Positions 32,998 through 42,173 of a stretch of DNA of 64,000 nucleotides are shown here, one piece after another. The translations under genes and the position numbers were made by a program. Each line of letters opens with the position of its first letter. The stretch's first letter is position 1. The notes under the pieces are model-generated. The model was given only the letters and a program-made list of their open reading frames with translations, made no database searches and was not told the DNA's origin. The DNA lies in the IMG/VR virus record IMGVR_UViG_3300014059_000004. One strand, 5' to 3'. The DNA comes from a virus.

Positions 32998-33327
32998 CAG
33001 CAGAATTTCTTGAGGGTAAAGCTTCTAGAAGAGTTCAACCAGATATTGTGCGAGCATAATCCGATGTGTCTGAACGAAGTTAGCGCAGACGAATACCAGT
33101 CTGAGGCTCTGTCTATCCTTGCAAGATTTTCAGAAGCTGGGTTTCACCTGGCTGAAAAAGACTCGATCGGCGAGCTGGCTAGCAGCATCGTGCTCAGCGT
33201 TCTGAACTTTTGGTTCACAGACACTGCACACCAGCACAGAGACAAAATCAACAAGTGTTCAGCAGCGCTCGTAGAAGCGTACTATAACTCTTGGATCAGA
33301 ACAAGTGTAGATGAGGGCTTAGTGTAG
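32980..33327 (+). CDS. hypothetical protein
   Basis: 115-aa ORF. Confidence 0.3.
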   Translation: MHLMSQQQNFLRVKLLEEFNQILCEHNPMCLNEVSADEYQSEALSILARFSEAGFHLAEKDSIGELASSIVLSVLNFWFTDTAHQHRDKINKCSAALVEAYYNSWIRTSVDEGLV

Positions 33328-33340
33328 TACGATAGCGGCA

Positions 33341-34351
33341 ATGTCGAAGAAAGTTCTGATCACGGGTATCGCTGGTTTTCTTGGTTCGCATCTTGCGTTG
33401 CATCACATCGCAGCCGGTGATGAGGTGATCGGTCTGGATGATTTCTCTTCGTCGAAGAGAGATTCTCTTCATCTTGCTACGATCAAGCGCCTCATGGCAG
33501 AGAAGAAGTTGGGGGAAGTCTATGAGTGCGACATTGCAGAGCAGAAGCAGGTTCATTACTGCTTGCAGAAGCACGCAATGAAAAAGTCACCAGCGGGAAT
33601 TGATCTGATCTATAACTTCGCTTGCCCTGCTTCACCGCCTCGATACCAACAGATTCCAACGAAGACGATGATGACATGCGTGGCCGGAACTAACAACATC
33701 ATCGACGTTGCTATGTGTAACAATTCTGTAGTTGTGCACGCCTCAACGTCTGAAGTGTACGGCGATCCGGATATCACTCCTCAAGTTGAATCTTATAGGG
33801 GTTGCGTGAACCCTTACGGTCCCCGAGCATGCTACGATGAAGGCAAGCGCGCAGCAGAAGCGTTGTGCTACGATTCTCTTTTCAAGTACGGCGTAGACGT
33901 ACGTCTCGTTAGAATATTCAACACGTATGGCCCTCATCTTGATGTAACAGACGGACGTGTAGTTTCAAACTTTATAACTCAAGCCTTGTACAACAAAGAT
34001 ATCACAATCTATGGTGATGGTTCTCAAACAAGGTCATTTTGTTACGTAGATGATCTGATACGTGGAATTGTTTCTTTGGGAGCCTTGAGCTACAATCCAA
34101 AAACGCCCATTAATTTGGGAAATCCAAATGAGTTTACCATTAAAGAACTTGCAGATGTTGTTATGTCTTTGATTCCAAGTAGCAAATCAAAATTTGTATG
34201 GCAGTCCATACCTATTGATGATCCACTTCAGAGAAAACCAGATATTACTATAGCGAAAGAAATTCTTAAATGGCAACCGAGTGTGCAATTGCTGGAAGGT
34301 CTTCAGAAGACGATACACTACATTCAGAACGTGAATGTGCAATTTACGTGA
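33341..34351 (+). CDS. NAD-dependent sugar-nucleotide epimerase/dehydratase (UDP-glucuronate decarboxylase-like SDR)
   Basis: 'VLITGIAGFLGSHL' Rossmann motif. 'TSEVYGDP'. Catalytic 'YDEGK' (YxxxK). Confidence 0.65.
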   Translation: MSKKVLITGIAGFLGSHLALHHIAAGDEVIGLDDFSSSKRDSLHLATIKRLMAEKKLGEVYECDIAEQKQVHYCLQKHAMKKSPAGIDLIYNFACPASPPRYQQIPTKTMMTCVAGTNNIIDVAMCNNSVVVHASTSEVYGDPDITPQVESYRGCVNPYGPRACYDEGKRAAEALCYDSLFKYGVDVRLVRIFNTYGPHLDVTDGRVVSNFITQALYNKDITIYGDGSQTRSFCYVDDLIRGIVSLGALSYNPKTPINLGNPNEFTIKELADVVMSLIPSSKSKFVWQSIPIDDPLQRKPDITIAKEILKWQPSVQLLEGLQKTIHYIQNVNVQFT

Positions 34352-34998
34352 TCACTAACAATGTTAATAACAAACGATATGTTGGGAAATCTGTTCAGCC
34401 AACTAGACGTTGGCTTGGGCACAAATCTTATGCCCGACGTGGTGATCTAAGAAGATTGTATTGTTCGATGCGAAAACATGGCGTTGAACAGTTCAAATTT
34501 GAAATATTGACGTGGTGTGATAGTGAAGACGCTGCTTTTCTTGAAGAAAAAAGAATAGTAACTGAGTGGAATCTATGTGATCCACGTGTAGGTTATAACT
34601 TGACTAGTGGTGGTCGTGGTGGATGTAGAGTGTCAGATCAAGTACGTCATAGAATGAAATTGCGTGAACCTTCAATGAAGGGTCGTAAACACACTGAAGA
34701 AACAAAGCGTCTATTGTCAATAGCTAGCTCTGGTGCTAATAATGCAAATTTTGGTAAACATAAAAGTGATGAAACTAAGCAAAAAATGAGTGATTCACAA
34801 AAAGGTCGTAAATTTACTGATGATCATCGTGAAAAGCTACGCCAGGCGAAGCTTGGAAAAAAGACAGGACGTAGTATACCACCAGAAATGGCTATAGCAA
34901 GAAGAAATATGAAAGGAACTATCGAGGCAAAAGAAGCTGCTAAATTGGGTTGGATAACACGTCGTGCCAAAATTAATGATGATACTGTAAATCAGTAA
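34270..34998 (+). CDS. free-standing GIY-YIG homing endonuclease
   Basis: 'IYVITNNVNNKRYVGKS...RRWLGHKS' GIY-YIG. Repeated basic NUMOD-like modules. Confidence 0.55.
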   Translation: MATECAIAGRSSEDDTLHSERECAIYVITNNVNNKRYVGKSVQPTRRWLGHKSYARRGDLRRLYCSMRKHGVEQFKFEILTWCDSEDAAFLEEKRIVTEWNLCDPRVGYNLTSGGRGGCRVSDQVRHRMKLREPSMKGRKHTEETKRLLSIASSGANNANFGKHKSDETKQKMSDSQKGRKFTDDHREKLRQAKLGKKTGRSIPPEMAIARRNMKGTIEAKEAAKLGWITRRAKINDDTVNQ

Positions 34999-35085
34999 AT
35001 TTATCGACATTTAACGAAAACTTAGTGTGAACTTGCGCTGTCACGAGCCTTACAATGTAAGGTAAGACGAATTACATGACACCGA

Positions 35086-35136
35086 AACGATTTGTTGGTC
35101 TTCATAATCACACGTGCTTTTCTTAGTGGCTCCTAT
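35086..35136 (+). CDS. 16-codon ORF 'MTPKRFVGLHNHTCFS' matching the DnaE PHP-domain N-terminus (displaced original dnaE start?)
   Basis: ATG with upstream 'taaggtaag'. 85% nt identity to 35972-36024, with differences at wobble positions. Ends TAG immediately after the Ser codon. Confidence 0.35.
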
Positions 35137-35164
35137 GGATTATTAGGTGGTCATCTAAATTAAA

Positions 35165-35926
35165 GTGAAGTATATTCATGGTGTTGAAGCCATGAAATCA
35201 AGAGAAAAAGTTTGTGACTGGTGCCATAATCCTTTTATTGATAAATCAAAAGGTAATTGGTGCCGCACATGTTCAAAAAACTGTCGTAATCAACTTCGAA
35301 CGCAAAATATGAGAAAAGGTGGCGCATTTGAATGGGATGAAGAACGACGTAAGAAAATTGGTGAAATAACCAAACAGAATCTACTTTCAGGAAAAGTAGA
35401 AAATCCGTGGTCTCGTAATGAGGTCAAAGAAAAAATTCGTCAGACGAACCTTAAAAAGTTTGGTGTTTCGAACTGGAGACAGACGAAAGAGGGTCGTGAA
35501 AGAACTATTACGTTCAATAAGAAACGAATTCGTTCGCGAGAAGAACGTCGAAAACATAGTGATAATGCTCGAAAACAAATGAAAGGTGGTCTCAAATCAC
35601 GAGGAAAGGCCGGGAAGCGAGATGATCTTCCTGGATTTTATCGCAGTCCATGGGAGGCAAATTACGCACGAATTCTTATCCACCAGGGAAAATCTTGGCT
35701 ATATGAACCGAAAACGTTCGAGCTCGCAAGTGGGATTTCTTACACGCCAGATTTCTATGTTGATGGTTGTTTCATTGAAATCAAAGGCTGGATGGATGAT
35801 CGGTCGAAACGTCAACTCGACGAATTTACAATTGAGTATCCAAACGAGAGGTTGCAAATTGTTGGTCCGAAGGAATATTATAGCCTTCGACAACAATACG
35901 CGTCATTGATTAAGGAATGGGAATGA
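35165..35926 (+). CDS. free-standing homing endonuclease (Zn-finger N-terminus, PD-(D/E)xK C-terminus) inserted at the dnaE 5' end
   Basis: 'CDWCHNPF...CRTCSKNC'. Repeated basic modules. 'PDFYVDGCFIEIKG'. Confidence 0.5.
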   Translation: MKYIHGVEAMKSREKVCDWCHNPFIDKSKGNWCRTCSKNCRNQLRTQNMRKGGAFEWDEERRKKIGEITKQNLLSGKVENPWSRNEVKEKIRQTNLKKFGVSNWRQTKEGRERTITFNKKRIRSREERRKHSDNARKQMKGGLKSRGKAGKRDDLPGFYRSPWEANYARILIHQGKSWLYEPKTFELASGISYTPDFYVDGCFIEIKGWMDDRSKRQLDEFTIEYPNERLQIVGPKEYYSLRQQYASLIKEWE

Positions 35927-36924
35927 AAATTAACGATTCAAACAACAGAAAGGAGGTATCCCTAGAAAACTCTGTGCGCACTCCGAAGCGATTTGTTGGT
36001 TTGCATAATCACACAGGGTTTTCGTAGGGGATTTAATCACCCTTTGACGGCCTCGGATACCCGAACGAACATTTCGATTTTTGTCGTGAGAATGGTCTTG
36101 ATGCTCACGCAATTACTGAGCACGGTAACATGAACAGTTACGCTCATGCTCAACTCGCAGTTGAAGATTGGAATAAAGCAAACCCAAAACTTCCTTTCAA
36201 GTACATTCCGGGTTGTGAAATGTACTTTCACCCAAGCTTGAAGCAGTGGGAAGTTGACAAGCTTCGTGCTGAAGAAGCCCTGGTCGATAAGAAAGCAGCA
36301 GCGAAGCTCCTGAAGGAGCAGGAAAAGCTGCAGACAAAGATCATTGCTGTCGTCGATGAAGCGGATGAAACCGAAGACATCGAGATGACCAATGCTCTGA
36401 CAGTTGAAAATGAAGACGAGTCAAAGTCAACGAAGCACTTCAATCCCGTCAACCGTCGTCATCACCTTGTTGTTCTGCCAAAGAACCAGCAGGGCTTGCT
36501 GTCCATTTTCTCTGCGTGCTCGAAAGCGTACATGCAGGGTTTTTACAGATTCCCTCGCATCGACTTGGAGATGCTGAAGGAAGCAGGAAAAGATCGTAAC
36601 ATCGTTGTCACTTCTGCATGCATTCATCCAGATTCAATTGTGATCACCAATTGTGGTTCAATGAAGATTGTTAATCTAGTTGAACATGTAAAAAATGGCA
36701 CTGAAATTTCGGTGTTGTCATATGATCATGACACAAACCAACTTGTTTTTAAGAAAGTTACTTGGGCTGATAAAACAAGAGAACAAGCAAAAATTGTTCG
36801 AATTAAGCTTAAAAATGGTGCAACATTGCGGGTAACGCCTGATCACAAAGTCTATACTAAACGTGGTTGGGTAGAAGCACAAGAACTTCTGAAAACAGAT
36901 CATATACTGTCAATCCACCAATAG
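35923..36924 (+). CDS. dnaE: DnaE (Pol III alpha) N-terminal PHP-domain segment plus split-intein IntN (36619-36921); reading frame interrupted by in-frame TAG (36025-27) and TAA (36034-36) 15 nt apart; conventional ORF resumes at 36130
   Basis: 'RFVGLHNHTGFS'-[tag ggg att taa tca]-'PFDGLGYPNEHFDFCRENGLDAHAITEHGNM...HLVVLPKNQQGLLSIF...IVVTSA|CIHPDSIV' aligns with the DnaE PHP N-terminus. All parts are in one frame. Confidence 0.45.
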
Positions 36925-38009
36925 TTATTGGTGGACAACTATGAGAAAATTTGATTCTAAAAAGAAAGCACTAGCTCGTCAAGAATTTCTTGACTCTCTA
37001 ACTCATGTAGGTCTGACGACGGTTGAATTGAAGCGCCTGGCATCAGACCTACATTATAGTTTGTCTATGATTTATGATCTAATTGTGAGAGATCACAATG
37101 ATATTGTTACACGTTTTCGTTTTTCAAAACGATCAATTGTAAATCTGTTTCATAAACTAGGCATAGTTCATAACAATAAACTTTACTTGAGATTGCCTCA
37201 AGAAGTTAAGTTGCAGTTCAAATATCCTAAGGGAACTTCTCTTGAAGAGATAAAAAAGATCTGTTCACAACAATCTTCAAAAGGTGCTAAGACTACTCAT
37301 CGTATTAGAAAGGCATGGGATGCATACACGCCCAAAAATAATACTGAATATTATCTCAATAAAGGATATTCTCTTGACGAAGCAAATGTTAAATCGTCAG
37401 CCTTTCGAAAAAGTAAGTCTCCATTCTCAAGATCATTTTCGAACTATCAACAGCTTGCTGCTGATGACGTTCTAGAACTAATTCGTGAACTCTCAAGAAA
37501 TAGAGGGCTTAAAGGGCTTGTTAGTATGCGTGCTCGCAATTCGAAACTCGAATTGCGAGTTGTATCTGAATTGCTAAACAAAGATATTCATTGTGAAACA
37601 CAGAAAATTTTGGGCAAATTTGCATATGATGTTTTTGTACCAAGATTCAATCTGATCATTGAAGTAAATGGAACGTACTGGCACGCAGATCCACGCGTTT
37701 ATAACGCTGATGATCTAATTCAATTTCCGTACGGGCAAGTTAAGGCAAGTGAAAAATGGTCAAAAGATGAGATAAAGTTGGCTTATGCCAGATCAATTGG
37801 CTATAATGTTTGTGTGTTGTGGGAAGCGGACTTGAAAAAAGAAGGTTACCTTGACGAATTCATCAAATCAATCAATGACAGCTATGCAGATGACAACTGA
37901 ATTCGTTGAAATTGACAGCATTTCCATTGACGAAGAAACACCTGACGTATATGACATAACAGTTGAAGATACACATTGTTTTTTTGCTGATGGTTCGCTA
38001 GTCCATAAT
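36619..38009 (+). mobile_element. fractured-gene element in dnaE: split intein plus interposed homing-endonuclease gene
   Basis: The extein junction restores DnaE 'TSA-C-IGG' ('S[AG]C' motif). The three ORFs are in three frames. Confidence 0.6.
36941..37900 (+). CDS. free-standing homing endonuclease (Vsr-like PD-(D/E)xK) between dnaE split-intein halves
   Basis: 'IIEVNGTYWHADP...VCVLWEADL' Vsr-like motif. Confidence 0.5.
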   Translation: MRKFDSKKKALARQEFLDSLTHVGLTTVELKRLASDLHYSLSMIYDLIVRDHNDIVTRFRFSKRSIVNLFHKLGIVHNNKLYLRLPQEVKLQFKYPKGTSLEEIKKICSQQSSKGAKTTHRIRKAWDAYTPKNNTEYYLNKGYSLDEANVKSSAFRKSKSPFSRSFSNYQQLAADDVLELIRELSRNRGLKGLVSMRARNSKLELRVVSELLNKDIHCETQKILGKFAYDVFVPRFNLIIEVNGTYWHADPRVYNADDLIQFPYGQVKASEKWSKDEIKLAYARSIGYNVCVLWEADLKKEGYLDEFIKSINDSYADDN

Positions 38010-41000
38010 TGCATCGGCGGGTTTCCCTCTTGGAGCGTATTCCAAGTGCTTCAGGGAATTTCGTTCGATAATCTCAACCAGTCGCTCCTTGACGACAAGG
38101 CTCTTCTTGATAAGTGCGTTGATGCTGTCGGAAATACGTACGACATGATGGTGTCTGCGGTTGGTGAAGGAAATTACTTCCTCGAGCTGCAGTTCAACCG
38201 TCTGCCGGCGCAGAACCTTGTCAACCGTGCAATCATTGAGTTTGCAACCAGAAATGGTTTGCAAAAACAACTTGTTGTCACTGGGGATGCGCACTACTAC
38301 AATCCAGACGTTTGGAAGGAGCGCGAGCTCTACAAAAAGCTGGGTTGGATGAACTACCAGACGATCGATCCCAATTCACTTCCAAAGTCTCGAGATGAGC
38401 TGAAGTGCGAACTTTACCCAAAGAACGCGCCTCAGATGTGGGATGAGTACTTGAAGTCGAAGGTCGATACGTCTTTTTACGATGATCAGATCATCTGTGA
38501 TGCAATTGAGCGAACCCACGACATCGCGCATCACCTCATTGGTGAGGTTAAACCAGATCGATCGCAAAAGTTTCCAACTGAGCGCCTCATCCCACCGGGT
38601 GAGAAGTCATTCAACCATCTCGTGAAGTTGTGCAAGGATGGGATGGTGAAGCGGGGGCTCGATGGCAAGGATGAATACCTTGATCGTTTGAAAGAAGAGC
38701 TCGGCGTCATCAAGCAGATGAAGAATGCTGACTACTTCATCTCGTACCAAAAGATCATCGAGCTAGCTCGAAAAGTTGTCCTACTTGGTCCTGCGCGAGG
38801 TAGTGGTGGAGGTTCTCTGGTGAATTATGTGCTTTACATCACTGATCTCGATCCAGTCAAGTGGGATCTACCATTTTCGAGATTTCTTTCTGTGCACCGC
38901 GTCGGTGCACCAGACATTGATAGCGACGTTGCTGATCGTGACAAGGTTCTTGACCAGCTACGTAATTTCTTTGGTTATGAGAACGTTGTTCCAATCTCGA
39001 ACTACAACGCCTTCAAGGTGAAGAGTCTCTTGAAGGACATCAGCAAGTTCTATGGGATTCCGTTCGATGAAGTCAACGCAGCGACTAGAACTGTCGAAGA
39101 CTCTGTTCGCCGCGCAACGATGAAGGAAGGTGATGACAAGAACCTATTCGTGCTCACGTACGATGAGGGTTTGAAGTACGACAAAGCATTTTCAGACTTC
39201 ATTGCGCGGCACCCTGAGGTTGGCGAATCTATGAACGTTCTGTTCAAGCAGAATCGTTCTCTTGGTCGCCATGCAGGTGGCGTTCTAATTGCTGATGACC
39301 TTCCAAACAAGATGCCGCTGATCACCAGCAAGGGTGAACCGCAGAGTCCTTGGGTCGAAGGCGTCAACTTCAAGCACCTTGAGAAGATCGGAAATTTCAT
39401 CAAGTACGACATCCTTGGTCTTGAAACGTTGAGGTTGATCGAAAGAACGATCGAGCTAATCCTCATCAAAGAGGGAAATGCAGCCCCGACGTTCGATGAC
39501 ATTAAGACGTGGTATGAAAATAACATGTCGCCCGACGTCATCGATCTTGACGATCAAGAAGTCTTCAAGGTATATAGCGAAGGAAGACATGCTGGTATAT
39601 TTCAGCTAACGTCGAAGGGTGCTCAGCAACTTTTCAAGAAAGCTCGACCAAAGAGCATCATCGATATCGCGGCTTTGACGTCTATTTATCGACCAGGTCC
39701 GCTAGCAGCTCACGTTGACAAGCTGTGGTTGAAGCATGAAGTTGAACCGTACGATTGGGGTCATCCACTTATTAACGCCACACTAGAAAAAACACGTGGT
39801 CTGCTAGTGTTCCAAGAGGGCGTCATGGCCCTTGTCAACAAAGTTTCAGGTTTTCCGTTGTCTGAAACTGATGAAGTTCGTAGAGCTATCATGAAGCGCA
39901 GCATCTCAGGTGGTGAGGCTGCGAAGAAGAAGATGAAGGAGCTTGAAGACAGCATTGTTGCTGGTGCTGTGAAGAACGGTGTTCCGGAAGCAACTGCTCG
40001 CAAGATGTATGAAACTATATGTTTTATGAGTGGCTATGGCTTCAATGCGTCTCATGCTGTTGCTTATGCCATTGATTCGTACTGGTGTGCCTGGTTGCTA
40101 ACGCACTACGAAGAGCAATGGTTGTGTGCTTATCTCGAGTCGATGTCAAACACCCCAGAACAACGAGCAAAAGCTTTCAGCGAAGTGAAGGCTTTGGGCT
40201 ACCAGATCGTCCCAATCGATATCAACCAAGCTGCGTTGGGCTGGACTGTGCTGCCTGGCAAGAAATTGATGCCATCGATGACAAGCTGCAAGGGTGTTGG
40301 TGATTCAGCAGTTGAAGAAATCATGGAAAACAGACCTTACGAGACAATTGAAGATCTGTTGTGGGATGATGAATTCAACTGGAAACACAGCAAGTTCAAC
40401 AAGAGGGCTCTAGAAGCTCTCATCAAGATCGGTGCATTTGGTTCAATGAACATCGTTGGCGAAGGTAAGCTCTTCAGCAGCTACAAGCACATGCACGATG
40501 TCATCGTTGGATCTCACGTTGAGACAGTGACAAAGAAGAGGAAGGGAGAAGTTTCAACGTTCGAAGCTGAGATAGATCATAACGCTCTGATAAAGCGACA
40601 TCCCAAGAGCGATCCAACTGAAGGTTTGAAGAACTTCTTTGAGCTTGTTCGAAAGTACGCCGGGCAACCTGATTGGTCTTCTATCGAGAAGACTCAAAAC
40701 ATGGTTGAAGTGTTCGGCACCTTGGATGTGACAGCGATGATCGATCCTCGGTTGCTCGATGCCCTAGATGGGAAGGGTGTAGTTCCAGTCGAAGATGTTG
40801 AGCTCGGCGAGATAAAAGTTTGCTGGTTTGTCGTCACTCCTACTTCACCCAAGAAGGGTGCAAAGCCCGTGACTGGCGTGAAGCGCAAGACAAAGAACGG
40901 AAAAGAGTACGTTCAGCTCTTTGCAACCGGTCCGACAGGCAAGCCAAATCGCATCAGCGTGTGGGGTTGCAAAGAGCTGCTTCAACCGTTCACGTTGTAC

Positions 41001-41183
41001 TGCGCTGAAGTTGAGAGGAACGAGTTTGGAATGTCGACTGCGGTGTTCAAGATGAGAAAATTGGGATTAGCGCTTGCTGCCCATCTTCAGATTCTTGGAA
41101 TCATTAGCGCTCCAGTTGTATCCACCGCCGACAGCGCCGGGTCCACCACCATGAGAGAATCCAGTTGGATTTCCCCATGCTGA
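37851..41183 (+). CDS. dnaE: split-intein IntC (about 37890-38009) fused to DnaE (Pol III alpha) C-terminal extein (palm, fingers, beta-binding, OB)
   Basis: 'VYDITVEDTHCFFADGSLVHN|CIGG'. Then 'LGPARGSGGGSLVNYVLYITDLDPVKW', 'GAPDIDSDV' and 'GIFQL' DnaE signatures. Confidence 0.75.
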   Translation: MTNSSNQSMTAMQMTTEFVEIDSISIDEETPDVYDITVEDTHCFFADGSLVHNCIGGFPSWSVFQVLQGISFDNLNQSLLDDKALLDKCVDAVGNTYDMMVSAVGEGNYFLELQFNRLPAQNLVNRAIIEFATRNGLQKQLVVTGDAHYYNPDVWKERELYKKLGWMNYQTIDPNSLPKSRDELKCELYPKNAPQMWDEYLKSKVDTSFYDDQIICDAIERTHDIAHHLIGEVKPDRSQKFPTERLIPPGEKSFNHLVKLCKDGMVKRGLDGKDEYLDRLKEELGVIKQMKNADYFISYQKIIELARKVVLLGPARGSGGGSLVNYVLYITDLDPVKWDLPFSRFLSVHRVGAPDIDSDVADRDKVLDQLRNFFGYENVVPISNYNAFKVKSLLKDISKFYGIPFDEVNAATRTVEDSVRRATMKEGDDKNLFVLTYDEGLKYDKAFSDFIARHPEVGESMNVLFKQNRSLGRHAGGVLIADDLPNKMPLITSKGEPQSPWVEGVNFKHLEKIGNFIKYDILGLETLRLIERTIELILIKEGNAAPTFDDIKTWYENNMSPDVIDLDDQEVFKVYSEGRHAGIFQLTSKGAQQLFKKARPKSIIDIAALTSIYRPGPLAAHVDKLWLKHEVEPYDWGHPLINATLEKTRGLLVFQEGVMALVNKVSGFPLSETDEVRRAIMKRSISGGEAAKKKMKELEDSIVAGAVKNGVPEATARKMYETICFMSGYGFNASHAVAYAIDSYWCAWLLTHYEEQWLCAYLESMSNTPEQRAKAFSEVKALGYQIVPIDINQAALGWTVLPGKKLMPSMTSCKGVGDSAVEEIMENRPYETIEDLLWDDEFNWKHSKFNKRALEALIKIGAFGSMNIVGEGKLFSSYKHMHDVIVGSHVETVTKKRKGEVSTFEAEIDHNALIKRHPKSDPTEGLKNFFELVRKYAGQPDWSSIEKTQNMVEVFGTLDVTAMIDPRLLDALDGKGVVPVEDVELGEIKVCWFVVTPTSPKKGAKPVTGVKRKTKNGKEYVQLFATGPTGKPNRISVWGCKELLQPFTLYCAEVERNEFGMSTAVFKMRKLGLALAAHLQILGIISAPVVSTADSAGSTTMRESSWISPC

Positions 41184-41570
41184 TCCCATGCCAGTTCCAC
41201 CACCGCCCGAGCCTGCGAAAGGATTCCTGCCGTGTGCTCCAGCTCTAAATCCTCTGACGCTCTTTGTCACGTTTCTGCCAACAAACTTGAACCCAAGATC
41301 GCCAAGTTCTTTCTTGATGTGCGCAAGATCGCTAGCACCAGCTTCAGAGACTTCCATCTTTGAACCATACTTTGCTTGCGTCATGTTGCGTCCAAGAGCA
41401 TGCAAATCGATGAAGTTGTATTCATAGTTGTCATCATCTAGCTTGCTCTCTATGAAAGCCTCCAATGACATGTATTCAGGATTTTCTCGCAATTCGTTGA
41501 TTTCTTCGTCAAGATCATCCTCAAGCACTTCTGATATCAAACGTCTCAAGGCACCTAGTTGCAGCTTCAT
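41067..41570 (-). CDS. leader-family protein with Gly-rich C-terminus (minus strand)
   Basis: 'MKLQLGALRRLISEVLEDD' leader. C-terminal 'GSGGGGTGMGSAWGNPTGFSHGGGPGAVGGG'. Confidence 0.4.
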   Translation of the reverse strand: MKLQLGALRRLISEVLEDDLDEEINELRENPEYMSLEAFIESKLDDDNYEYNFIDLHALGRNMTQAKYGSKMEVSEAGASDLAHIKKELGDLGFKFVGRNVTKSVRGFRAGAHGRNPFAGSGGGGTGMGSAWGNPTGFSHGGGPGAVGGGYNWSANDSKNLKMGSKR

Positions 41571-41609
41571 GCTGTGTAAATATCGCGTTAATGTGTTAAA
41601 CTGGTAAAT

Positions 41610-42173
41610 ATGAACAATCGTCCATCCTATTGGTCTAAGTCAGTTGCGGAAAAAGTGGTTGAATCTCTCATGCCCGACATCTTCAAGCTGGTCGGAGAAG
41701 ATGCAAAAGAAGATCAGCAGTACGTAGATGACATGAAAGAAGATTTGCTCAGAGCTATTGATCTCGAAGATGATGAGTATCGCATCTGCAGGAACCTAGA
41801 ACGTTCAACGTGGGAAGTTGATTCAGCATTGTATGATATCATGAGCAAGGTTGCGTACTTGCGCACAAAGCACCATTATACTGAAGAAAAGGAATGGGTG
41901 AAACAGCATTCGATTAATCTCGAATATTCTGTGGGCCAACGAGTGACCTTCAAGAAGCCTAATGGGACCCAGGTTGAGGGTGAGGTGATCAAGCTGCATG
42001 AGGATCGTGCTTCATACACTGTCTACTGCGAAAGTGAAGGTCACGTGAGGTCTGGTGTCGGAACACACGGCCTTGTTATCGCTGCCGAAGATTTGGCTCT
42101 CGTCCAAGAAGAGCGCCGGTCGAATTTTAGCGTCGTTTCTCCGGGCGTTGGGTCTAGAGAGAATGACGTCTGA
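41610..42173 (+). CDS. hypothetical protein
   Basis: 187-aa ORF. Confidence 0.3.
   Translation: MNNRPSYWSKSVAEKVVESLMPDIFKLVGEDAKEDQQYVDDMKEDLLRAIDLEDDEYRICRNLERSTWEVDSALYDIMSKVAYLRTKHHYTEEKEWVKQHSINLEYSVGQRVTFKKPNGTQVEGEVIKLHEDRASYTVYCESEGHVRSGVGTHGLVIAAEDLALVQEERRSNFSVVSPGVGSRENDV

Follow-up and report, generated by a model that had tools for sequence, protein, structure and literature searches.

A mobile endonuclease cassette and a stop-containing gap in a viral dnaE gene point to short programmed translational bypassing

The dnaE gene investigated here lies in a stretch of 64,000 nucleotides (nt) from the virus IMGVR_UViG_3300014059_000004. We refer to this whole stretch as the window, and all positions without another source are counted within it. 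The 5' end of the gene is present twice, and the coding sequence for its PHP domain is interrupted by a gap of 15 nt that contains stop codons. Both features go back to a cassette that entered the PHP motif ...HNHT(G/C)FS|PFDGL... precisely behind its Ser codon and that consists of a gene for a homing-endonuclease-like protein, a replacement for the first codons of dnaE, and the gap itself. We consider it likely that full-length DnaE is made by a short programmed translational bypass, or stop-hop, in which the ribosome would pass over the gap. A preliminary description of the locus had listed such a bypass, of the gene 60 type and from UCG to UCA, as one of four possibilities, and the comparative evidence favors it over the other three: the same architecture recurs in 35 distinct gaps that fall into all three reading frames. 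Our computational analysis shows the anatomy of the locus, the insertion and mobility of the cassette, the recurrence of the gap, and a rule that relates the codons at its two ends; it also shows selection on both sides of the gap, as well as an association of the gap with the endonuclease, with an extended N-terminus and with a stem-loop upstream. The features of the 5' region are the following.

35076-35126, plus strand: copy 1, the relic of the native dnaE 5' end (MTPKRFVGLHNHTCFS followed by TAG), with its own start and a short leader of the intact type
35124-36039, plus strand: inserted cassette of about 916 nt (endonuclease gene, replacement N-terminal segment and gap), between the native Ser codon and CCC
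35165-35926, plus strand: free-standing homing-endonuclease-like open reading frame (ORF), 253 amino acids (aa) from GTG 35165 or 244 aa from ATG 35192
35923-36024, plus strand: replacement N-terminal ORF of 34 codons, comprising copy 2 and an extension (MKINDSNNRKEVSLENSVRTPKRFVGLHNHTGFS); its ATG overlaps the endonuclease stop (ATGA)
35950-35956, plus strand: Shine-Dalgarno-like AAGGAGG inside the N-terminal extension, found in most endonuclease-linked alleles, with synonymous positions conserved
35977-36006, plus strand: upstream stem-loop region, with its 3' end at the first His codon and 15 nt before the take-off codon
36022-36024, plus strand: candidate take-off codon TCG (Ser); the last sense codon is Ser in 35 of 35 gaps
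36025-36036, plus strand: non-coding spacer TAG GGG ATT TAA, which would place UAG in the A site at take-off; second in-frame stop at 36034-36036
36037-36039, plus strand: candidate landing codon TCA, a Ser codon from the box of the take-off codon; the match rule holds in 35 of 35 gaps
36040-36618, plus strand: CCC, at which decoding would resume, followed by the remainder of the DnaE N-extein (PHP, PFDGLGYPNEHF...VVTSA), recognized by Pfam PHP and by intact homologues

Copy 1 starts at ATG 35076, continues with the codons for T to S at 35079-35123, and ends with TAG at 35124-35126, which makes it an ORF of 16 aa that breaks off exactly past the Ser codon TCT (35121-35123). The corresponding codons of copy 2, at 35980-36024, encode ...TPKRFVGLHNHTGFS and end in TCG (36022-36024). 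A repeat search aligns 35079-35129 with 35980-36030 over 51 nt, of which 42 are identical (82%), and the match runs through the TAG into 'GG'. A repeat in which both copies encode the same conserved peptide is far beyond chance. Downstream of copy 2 the sequence reads TCG TAG (36025-36027) GGG ATT TAA (36034-36036) TCA (36037-36039) and then CCC (36040) TTT GAC; the gap, 36025-36039, parts copy 2 from the remainder of dnaE. The frame of copy 2 opens at ATG 35923, which overlaps the stop codon TGA (35924-35926) of the endonuclease ORF and lies 6 nt downstream of the Shine-Dalgarno sequence AAGGA at 35912-35916. When copy 2 is joined to the sequence from 36040 on, the match of the encoded protein to the Pfam PHP profile begins at position 2 and scores 68.3 bits, whereas without the N-terminal peptide it begins only at position 12 and scores 56.5 bits. 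The preliminary description had read most of this anatomy correctly: the mini-ORF with its own ATG, the ATG of the second copy within the endonuclease stop, and the sequence of the gap stand as it gave them, and its expectation that deletion of the 15 nt restores a gapless DnaE N-terminus agrees both with the shift of the PHP match and with the 110 distinct intact homologues that read through the site. It was also right in reporting two nearly identical copies, but its coordinates for copy 1 were about 10 nt too high, its start of copy 2 about 5 nt too low, and its figure of 85% identity was not reproduced.

Copy 1 is the native 5' end of dnaE, which was displaced by the inserted cassette and now forms a dead mini-ORF; the preliminary description had left the duplication unexplained. 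We surveyed about 270 related metagenomic loci; the counts given here and below are among the matches listed and therefore represent minimum numbers. A second, upstream copy of the motif is found in only five loci, the window, L021, L024, L087 and L110, all of them interrupted alleles that carry the endonuclease gene. Each of these upstream copies immediately precedes the endonuclease ORF, begins with a short leader of the kind seen in intact alleles (M..PxRFVGLH...) and diverges only beyond the Ser codon, so that all five left junctions fall at the identical Ser codon. The relics in L021, L024 and L087 are already decaying. The TAG after copy 1 merely represents the first bases of the inserted DNA. 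The earlier suggestion that the TAG after both copies is functional is borne out for copy 2 only; none of the four relic junctions outside the window has a conserved stop. L021 shares 95.7% identity with the window over 33547-35065 and 94.1% from 35992 on (35992-39000), and the 41 nt at 35074-35114 are 100% identical to its relic, whereas 35115-35991 lacks any DNA similarity to L021 and the endonucleases of the two loci have only about 32% identity. Near-identical flanks and an identical relic surrounding unrelated interiors reveal that copy 1 is native and was displaced by the cassette. Closely related phages carry different versions of the cassette at one and the same site, and this presence/absence polymorphism demonstrates that the cassette is mobile.

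Comparison with homologous phages shows that the gap is not peculiar to the window but recurs at two sites, in at least 35 junctions with lengths of 5-42 nt. The first survey gave 134 distinct junction contexts, of which 110 read through (...LHxH(T/S)xFS|xFDGLGYP...), the intact alleles having ...CACACNGGNTTYTCN|CCNTTYGAYGG... at the junction corresponding to that of the window. The other 24 contexts are interrupted, either at this position, behind GFS (site A), or three codons further 5', behind HxHS (site B). A search that started from the endonuclease later added more, and the final non-redundant catalogue contains at least 35 genuine junctions, after the removal of false positives of the regular expression at distances of 54, 31, 21 and 4 and with L188/L195 left out as an artefact of the same kind. 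The gaps in the catalogue are 5, 7, 8, 9, 10, 11, 12, 15, 16 and 39-42 nt long. Their lengths modulo 3 are 0, 1 and 2 in 15, 11 and 9 junctions, respectively; thus, 20 of the 35 shift the frame, and gaps that fall into all three frames can be accommodated only by a mechanism that does not depend on frame.

The two ends of the gaps are related by a simple rule. In all 35 junctions the last sense codon is a Ser codon with a stop directly next to it (TAA in 17, TGA in 9 and TAG in 9), and in all 35 the triplet just 5' of the resuming codon matches the candidate take-off codon in at least two of three positions, a degree of similarity that neighboring offsets in the spacer reach in only 0-6%. The landing triplet is a Ser codon of the same box in 24 junctions (TCG...TCA in the window; also TCC...TCC and TCT...TCT); it shares positions 2 and 3 with the take-off codon in nine (ACG or GCG for TCG, ACC for TCC, ACT for TCT), and it is TTG for TCG in the remaining two. 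Even when the junctions are collapsed into 10 groups by single-linkage clustering, which over-merges short spacers, the chance probability of the match rule is still about 9e-9. The codons chosen also differ from those of intact alleles, which use AGY for the Ser at this site in 63 of 107 cases (59%): among the site-A alleles of the first survey the take-off codon is TCN in 18 of 19 (p = 8e-6 versus intact usage), and wherever the landing codon encodes Ser it comes from the same box as the take-off codon (11 of 11 cases; P = 8e-5 under native usage). The only two AGY take-off codons, AGC in L026 and AGT in L204, have AGC and AGT, respectively, as their landing codons. This codon match is the signature expected if a single peptidyl-tRNA were to pair at both sites.

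Codon use at the two ends of the gaps is asymmetric. TCG is the take-off codon in 18 of the 35 junctions and never the landing codon, while TCA serves nine times as landing codon and once as take-off codon. This asymmetry may reflect weak pairing at take-off combined with stronger pairing at landing, or simply ancestry.

The gaps at site B have the form TCG-stop...TCA|GGA. They are 12 nt long in L173 and 39-42 nt long in the others, and are located as follows (coordinates of the respective locus).

L036, 2534-2590: site B gap
L115, 2534-2587: site B gap
L116, 672-725: site B gap
L126, 2105-2160 (equal to L127): site B gap
L173, 2062-2088: site B gap

Both flanks of the gap are maintained by selection. 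In the interrupted site-A alleles the ratio of nonsynonymous to synonymous substitution rates (dN/dS) amounts to about 0.14 both in the 15 codons that precede the stop and in the 30 codons that follow the gap, compared to 0.23 and 0.15 for the matching segments of intact alleles; these ratios are rough, as dS is saturated. In all alleles the ORF is intact over more than 1000 codons. The low ratio on both flanks indicates that both are translated, which excludes a copy 2 that is only a dead remnant as well as a DnaE that starts at M 36130. The latter, a truncated protein reinitiating at this Met, was among the suggestions of the preliminary description; it conflicts with the purifying selection on the 30 codons between the gap and this residue. 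It must be copy 2 that is functional, since most interrupted alleles (e.g., L001, L003 and L008) lack a second motif further upstream.

The ORF at 35165-35926 appears, by its sequence motifs, to encode a homing-endonuclease-like protein of the PD-(D/E)xK type. Its N-terminus contains a CxxC...C...C motif and repeats that resemble DNA-binding motifs, and its C-terminus a PD-(D/E)xK-type nuclease motif (WEANYAR...W.YE...YTPDF...E.KG); in an alignment of six homologues CxxC...C...C and WEAN.AR...W.YE...YTPDF...E.KG are invariant. PHROG 'homing endonuclease' families match residues 11-121, the DNA-binding part, and PHROG endonuclease and Holliday-junction-resolvase families match residues 144-238 (E = 5.6e-14). 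A Pfam search with this ORF gave no match, including none to HNH, and a PDB sequence search returned nothing meaningful. Homologues of the endonuclease are encoded directly upstream of dnaE in 14 of 24 interrupted but only 5 of 110 intact alleles (p = 4e-9). Full-length homologues that were searched for independently are found almost exclusively upstream of dnaE, and most of these dnaE genes are interrupted.

An endonuclease gene or its remnant is also found beside an uninterrupted dnaE, in L153, L004, L038, L046, L121 and 12 further loci, which shows that the gap is not obligatory for the two genes to coexist. Locus L153 retains 'ENPVVVP', a motif of the N-terminal extension, although its dnaE is intact. 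This suggests that the loss of the gap was secondary.

The interrupted alleles encode a longer N-terminus than the intact ones, with 19-31 residues before the first His (median 22) versus a median of 12 (p = 7e-11). Counted from the upstream ATG, the nascent chain at take-off would comprise 34 residues in the window, 26-38 at site A and about 23-30 at site B. This ATG is preceded by a Shine-Dalgarno sequence: AAGGA in the window, GGAAGG formed by the codons for the terminal WEGK of the endonuclease in other alleles, and AGGA in alleles that lack the endonuclease. A GTG located ten codons before the first His was considered as the true start; it is the less probable one, as the upstream ATG has the conserved Shine-Dalgarno sequence, the frame is open upstream in all interrupted alleles, and base pairing with the His codon CAY engages the GUG in the stem-loop described below. 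A candidate for a nascent-peptide stimulator, which in bypassing of the gene 60 type would be expected about 25-30 residues from the P site, is a conserved region, (R/G)KE(V/A)...ENxVRxP, about 24 residues from the take-off Ser; however, part of its conservation is at the nucleotide level (AAGGAGG; GUG:CAY), and the start codon is not certain. The AAGGAGG sequence has equivalents in L001, L021, L024, L030, L109, L110, L131 and L132. It precedes the take-off codon by about 72 nt, a GTG or ATG in frame being no closer to it than 14-17 nt, and it may be an internal Shine-Dalgarno sequence, a pause site or an ancestral ribosome-binding site.

The upstream stem-loop distinguishes interrupted from intact alleles as well. 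Over 30 nt, the median minimum free energy is -7.5 kcal/mol in the former versus -2.3 kcal/mol in the latter, and after resampling of synonymous codons the z-scores are -1.85 versus +0.32 (p = 7e-8), composition also being controlled. The signal is sharply localized, with its peak exactly at the 30-nt segment that ends at the first His codon. In the window the stem-loop is weaker than the family median (-6.0 kcal/mol). The 39-42 nt gaps of site B have, in addition, a strong GC hairpin directly 3' of the stop (z = -3.1 and -4.1), which has undergone one compensatory change from C:G to U:A. This form, with a hairpin right after the stop, represents a more gene-60-like variant. The gap of the window contains GGGG (36027-36030), 6 nt 5' of the landing codon and followed by AUUUAA, a feature that is not general in the family. 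A scan of 34900-36200 for promoters and terminators gave matches at chance level only.

These observations can be combined into the following scenario. The endonuclease cassette entered dnaE after the Ser codon, bringing along its own replacement for the 5' coding segment. Translation of DnaE would begin at ATG 35923, coupled to the stop codon of the endonuclease gene, and proceed through the N-terminally extended copy 2 until, at codon 34 (UCG, 36022-36024), the ribosome meets UAG in its A site. The peptidyl-tRNA(Ser) would then unpair, the mRNA would slide by 15 nt, and the tRNA would pair again at UCA 36037-36039, so that decoding restarts at CCC 36040. The product would read ...HNHTGFS-PFDGLGYP... 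(HNHTGFSPFDGLGYP) without any extra residues, and the predicted junction peptide is ...FVGLHNHTGFSPFDGLGYPNEHF.... Both the hopping itself and its efficiency are inferred. By splitting the target of the endonuclease at the new junction, the gap would spare the invaded genome from self-cleavage while the conserved protein motif remains unchanged; judging by analogy with MobA and gene 60 of phage T4, protection from its own endonuclease is probably what the gap provides.

Several findings weigh against this scenario or parts of it. The landing triplets of 11 of the 35 junctions do not encode Ser (ACG, GCG, ACC, ACT and TTG) and would allow only two-out-of-three pairing, and shared ancestry of the cassettes inflates all the junction counts. 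A take-off stem-loop, for which the preliminary description had suggested folding the region, finds no support in the short gaps, whose local hairpins lack significant stability (z = -0.9 in the window, near 0 in L001 and L021). The start of the N-terminal ORF is less than certain, since 13 of 24 alleles have a GTG or ATG in frame ten codons ahead of the first His, and at the four alleles with a start codon at or beside the landing site termination followed by reinitiation could operate. At least 17 endonuclease-bearing loci have an intact dnaE, which leaves the immunity rationale of the gap unproven. We found no cultured phage or host that carries this DnaE family, the only matches being distant ones at the protein level and one contig of a metagenome-assembled genome among the GTDB genomes; at the DNA level the region has no match in GenBank phages. 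Finally, synthetic stop-hops in Escherichia coli are only about 1% efficient, which would be awkward for a replicative polymerase unless stimulators are effective or little enzyme is needed.

The main alternative explanation is that dnaE has become a split gene, in which an N-terminal peptide of about 34 aa with the HxH metal-binding motif and the rest of DnaE assemble non-covalently, the latter being translated after an unconventional initiation or reinitiation near the landing triplet. There is precedent for endonuclease insertions that give rise to two interacting products (Manning & Atkins, bioRxiv 10.1101/2022.08.31.505936), and T4 39/60 and Aeh1 nrdA are endonuclease-split genes to which such an arrangement can be likened. 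A split gene would likewise need a stop right after the Ser codon, and a few alleles look well suited to it: in L021-L023 (TAATG-TCA) and L110 (TGATG-TCA) a stop and a start overlap in frame with the downstream ORF, and in L024 and L087 a TTG directly precedes the resuming codon. However, no other allele has an ATG or TTG in frame at the landing site or adjacent to it, so that a start-capable codon in frame is available at just 4 of the 35 junctions; in the window there is none between TAG and CCC (ATT is followed by TAA), and most gaps have no suitably spaced Shine-Dalgarno sequence either. Nor would a split gene explain why the triplets match in 35 of 35 junctions, why they belong to the same Ser box, with AGY facing AGY, or why the N-terminal extension and the upstream stem-loop are present. 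On balance we regard the split gene as unlikely, though it is the strongest competitor of the bypass. Tolerated damage is less plausible still and appears quite improbable to us. Under this explanation the gap is a scar of cutting and repair or of integration, the matching triplets are target-site duplications, and DnaE is truncated or inactive (e.g., starting at M 36130) while another polymerase does the work. The relics of L110 (TCA, landing TCA) and L087 (TTG, landing TTG) do carry one triplet on both sides of the cassette, and several homologues have been called from a conserved internal Met, MNSYAHAQ. In the window, however, the Ser codon of the relic (TCT) differs from the landing codon (TCA), and damage would not be expected to preserve a dN/dS of about 0.14 on both flanks together with the long open frame in every allele. 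The spacers have diverged widely in length and sequence, whereas the relation between take-off and landing has been kept in all junctions, and the landing triplets depart from native usage with its 59% AGY. Target-site duplication as the source of the matching triplets is weakened, although not fully removed, by this codon-box comparison.

Explanations that act on the RNA or that read through the stop fare worse. Removal at the RNA level, either by a group I or group II intron that joins copy 1 to CCC 36040 or by some other processing that excises only the short gap, is very improbable. The endonuclease ORF is flanked by exon-like sequence, as is the case for intron-encoded homing endonucleases, and copy 1 ends in U, as does the exon at a group I 5' splice site; but CCC is preceded by A, where a group I 3' splice site would need a G, non-coding sequence makes up only about 150 nt of the cassette, and Rfam detects no intron or other family with E up to 1 across 33000-42000 and no family at gathering thresholds in the whole window. 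The upstream copy, which would be the first exon, is absent from most interrupted alleles (L001, L003, L008) and is decaying in L021, L024 and L087, and no known self-splicing element is small enough to fit into gaps of 5-16 nt. Stop codon readthrough, by a suppressor tRNA or a reassigned code and with five extra residues, or else an error of sequencing or assembly, we find scarcely credible. The gap in the window is in frame, and some large phages recode TAG or TGA; however, this gap holds both a TAG and a TAA, all three stop codons are used in the family, intact homologues have no extra residues at the site, and the out-of-frame gaps rule out simple readthrough as a general mechanism. The phage-encoded CUA tRNA-like RNA that the preliminary description had invoked for suppression could not be confirmed: in the whole window neither ARAGORN nor Rfam at gathering thresholds finds a tRNA or a tRNA-like gene, and the single match of an ad hoc search for tRNA-like patterns was at chance level and was discarded. 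An artefact, the last of the earlier suggestions, is ruled out by the identical junction in L021, L022 and L023, which come from three different samples, and the gap is present in dozens of independent assemblies from many metagenomes. We also considered frameshifting, but the junctions share no slippery sequence, the gap of the window would require two shifts, and the skipped lengths range from 5 to 42 nt.

The closest known system is the gene 60/MobA cassette of phage T4, on which Bonocora et al. are said to have reported in 2011. In both systems a free-standing homing endonuclease resides in an essential, conserved gene of DNA metabolism; the cassette brings its own coding sequence, an N-terminal extension, together with a non-coding gap; a stop occupies the A site at take-off, where the nascent chain is at least about 30 residues long; and the landing codon matches that of take-off. 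In both, the gap outlasts the loss of the endonuclease in some genomes, and the cassette is polymorphic among close relatives. The GGGG in the gap of the window also matches the mini-Shine-Dalgarno sequence of gene 60 in its spacing, 6 nt ahead of the landing codon, and in its AU-rich surroundings (Atkins et al. 2016, PMC5009743). However, the host gene is dnaE (PHP) here and a topoisomerase gene there, the endonuclease is PD-(D/E)xK-like and not MobA, the gene 60 gap is 50 nt long as compared to 5-16 nt (39-42 nt in one sub-family), and take-off occurs at Gly GGA there and at Ser (UCN/AGY) here. The short dnaE gaps cannot accommodate a take-off stem-loop, their landing triplet often matches in only two of three positions or differs at the wobble position, and an insertion about 17 codons into dnaE leaves a relic mini-ORF and not two large subunits. 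On inspection, although without a formal comparison, the sequence does not resemble that of the gene 60 cassette. Given the differences in host gene, endonuclease family, take-off codon and gap length, the dnaE cassette is an analogue of the gene 60/MobA cassette and not a member of its lineage.

Other known cases of skipping share individual traits with the dnaE gaps. The synthetic stop-hops of Weiss et al. (1987), in the summary given by PMC5009743, resemble them in that matched codons flank a stop, that hopping is independent of frame, and that the distances are on the scale of 5-16 nt; according to the same summary these were artificial or accidents of over-expression, whereas the dnaE elements are natural, conserved and linked to a mobile element. 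In the terminase genes g6/g7 of Streptomyces phage Hau3, for which the junction peptide was shown by mass spectrometry in E. coli (PMC10732093), a phage gene likewise contains a short coding gap with a slow codon in the A site, but there the codon is the rare sense codon UUA and not a stop, the role proposed is regulatory, and no homing endonuclease is linked to it (PMC10732093). The mitochondrial byp elements of Magnusiomyces capitatus, as described in PMC5009743, are numerous short, mobile inserts that are skipped with imperfect, two-out-of-three codon matches; in that description they differ in being read by mitochondrial ribosomes, in having an unused codon in the A site, in occurring in many genes and in having no endonuclease partner (PMC5009743). 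The 'fractured genes' of Dassa et al. 2009 (PMC2677866) are similar in that an endonuclease breaks an essential gene that is then repaired post-transcriptionally. In those genes the repair is by protein trans-splicing; at the 5' site of dnaE there is no intein, and repair would have to occur during translation.

An arrangement identical to that of the fractured genes does occur further downstream in the same dnaE gene, where the features are the following.

36619-36921, plus strand: N-intein, from Cys 36619, with its stop at 36922-36924 (Pfam Intein_splicing)
36941-37900, plus strand: free-standing Vsr-like endonuclease ORF, with PHROG endonuclease matches and a weak Vsr match to 1cw0 (E = 0.077)
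To 38007-38009, plus strand: C-intein, ending in Asn (Pfam Intein_splicing)
38010 to stop 41183, plus strand: C-extein, from Cys 38010 (Pfam DNA_pol3_alpha, finger and HHH_6)

The region 36619-38009 thus has the components by which Dassa et al. 2009 (PMC2677866) characterize a fractured gene, namely an N-intein, an endonuclease ORF and a C-intein. Most of the homologues, which are about 300 aa long and consist of PHP plus the N-intein, share this split. An exception is P0002, which is 99% identical and reads ...VVTSA|CIGGFPSW..., an intein-less allele in a near-identical phage. A third endonuclease-type gene within 4 kb, an ORF with GIY-YIG and NUMOD3 at 34270-34998, comes immediately before the dnaE relic and shares 82 nt with the 3' end of the ORF of 336 aa that precedes it (33341-34351). 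Between the GIY-YIG gene and the relic, L021 has about 400 additional nt (1520-1919, with an ORF of 130 aa at 1519-1911) that are missing at 35066-35073 of the window although the two are otherwise 95% identical, which marks another indel hotspot adjoining the cassette.

The public gene calls for a number of interrupted alleles are wrong, namely those of proteins P0002, P0004, P0006, P0007, P0013, P0022 and P0041. They are either cut at the conserved internal Met (MNSYAHAQ...) or extended upstream in the wrong frame (e.g., MDRRVLLVFIITRASRELPYDGL...), which hides the HxH motif. The practical consequence for annotation is that such polymerase genes are at present miscalled.

Our literature searches found no description of a bypass in dnaE or of the cassette investigated here. 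Homologues of the gene 60 cassette are known only from topoisomerase genes, and the cassette "remains unique" (Manning & Atkins 2022, bioRxiv 10.1101/2022.08.31.505936). Shorter counterparts with matched codons have "long been presumed" to exist; synthetic stop-hops work, but no natural one was known in 2016 (PMC5009743). Among the natural cases of efficient bypassing in bacteria and phages, T4 gene 60 is essentially the only one that has been studied well. We lean towards the view that the dnaE gaps form a natural, maintained family of short hops, of 5-16 nt with a hairpin-bearing variant of 39-42 nt, spread by an undescribed PD-(D/E)xK cassette, and that they represent a second, independent invention of the strategy of MobA and gene 60. 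If dnaE is indeed translated by hopping, the window locus and its 34 variants would supply the missing class of natural short stop-hops. The variants would also constitute a natural mutational series, differing in length, in frame, in the stop codon used, in perfect or two-out-of-three landing, and in the presence or absence of a hairpin, with which the minimal requirements for hopping could be dissected. The combination of an endonuclease with a bypassed gap would then be a recurrent evolutionary solution and not an oddity of T4.

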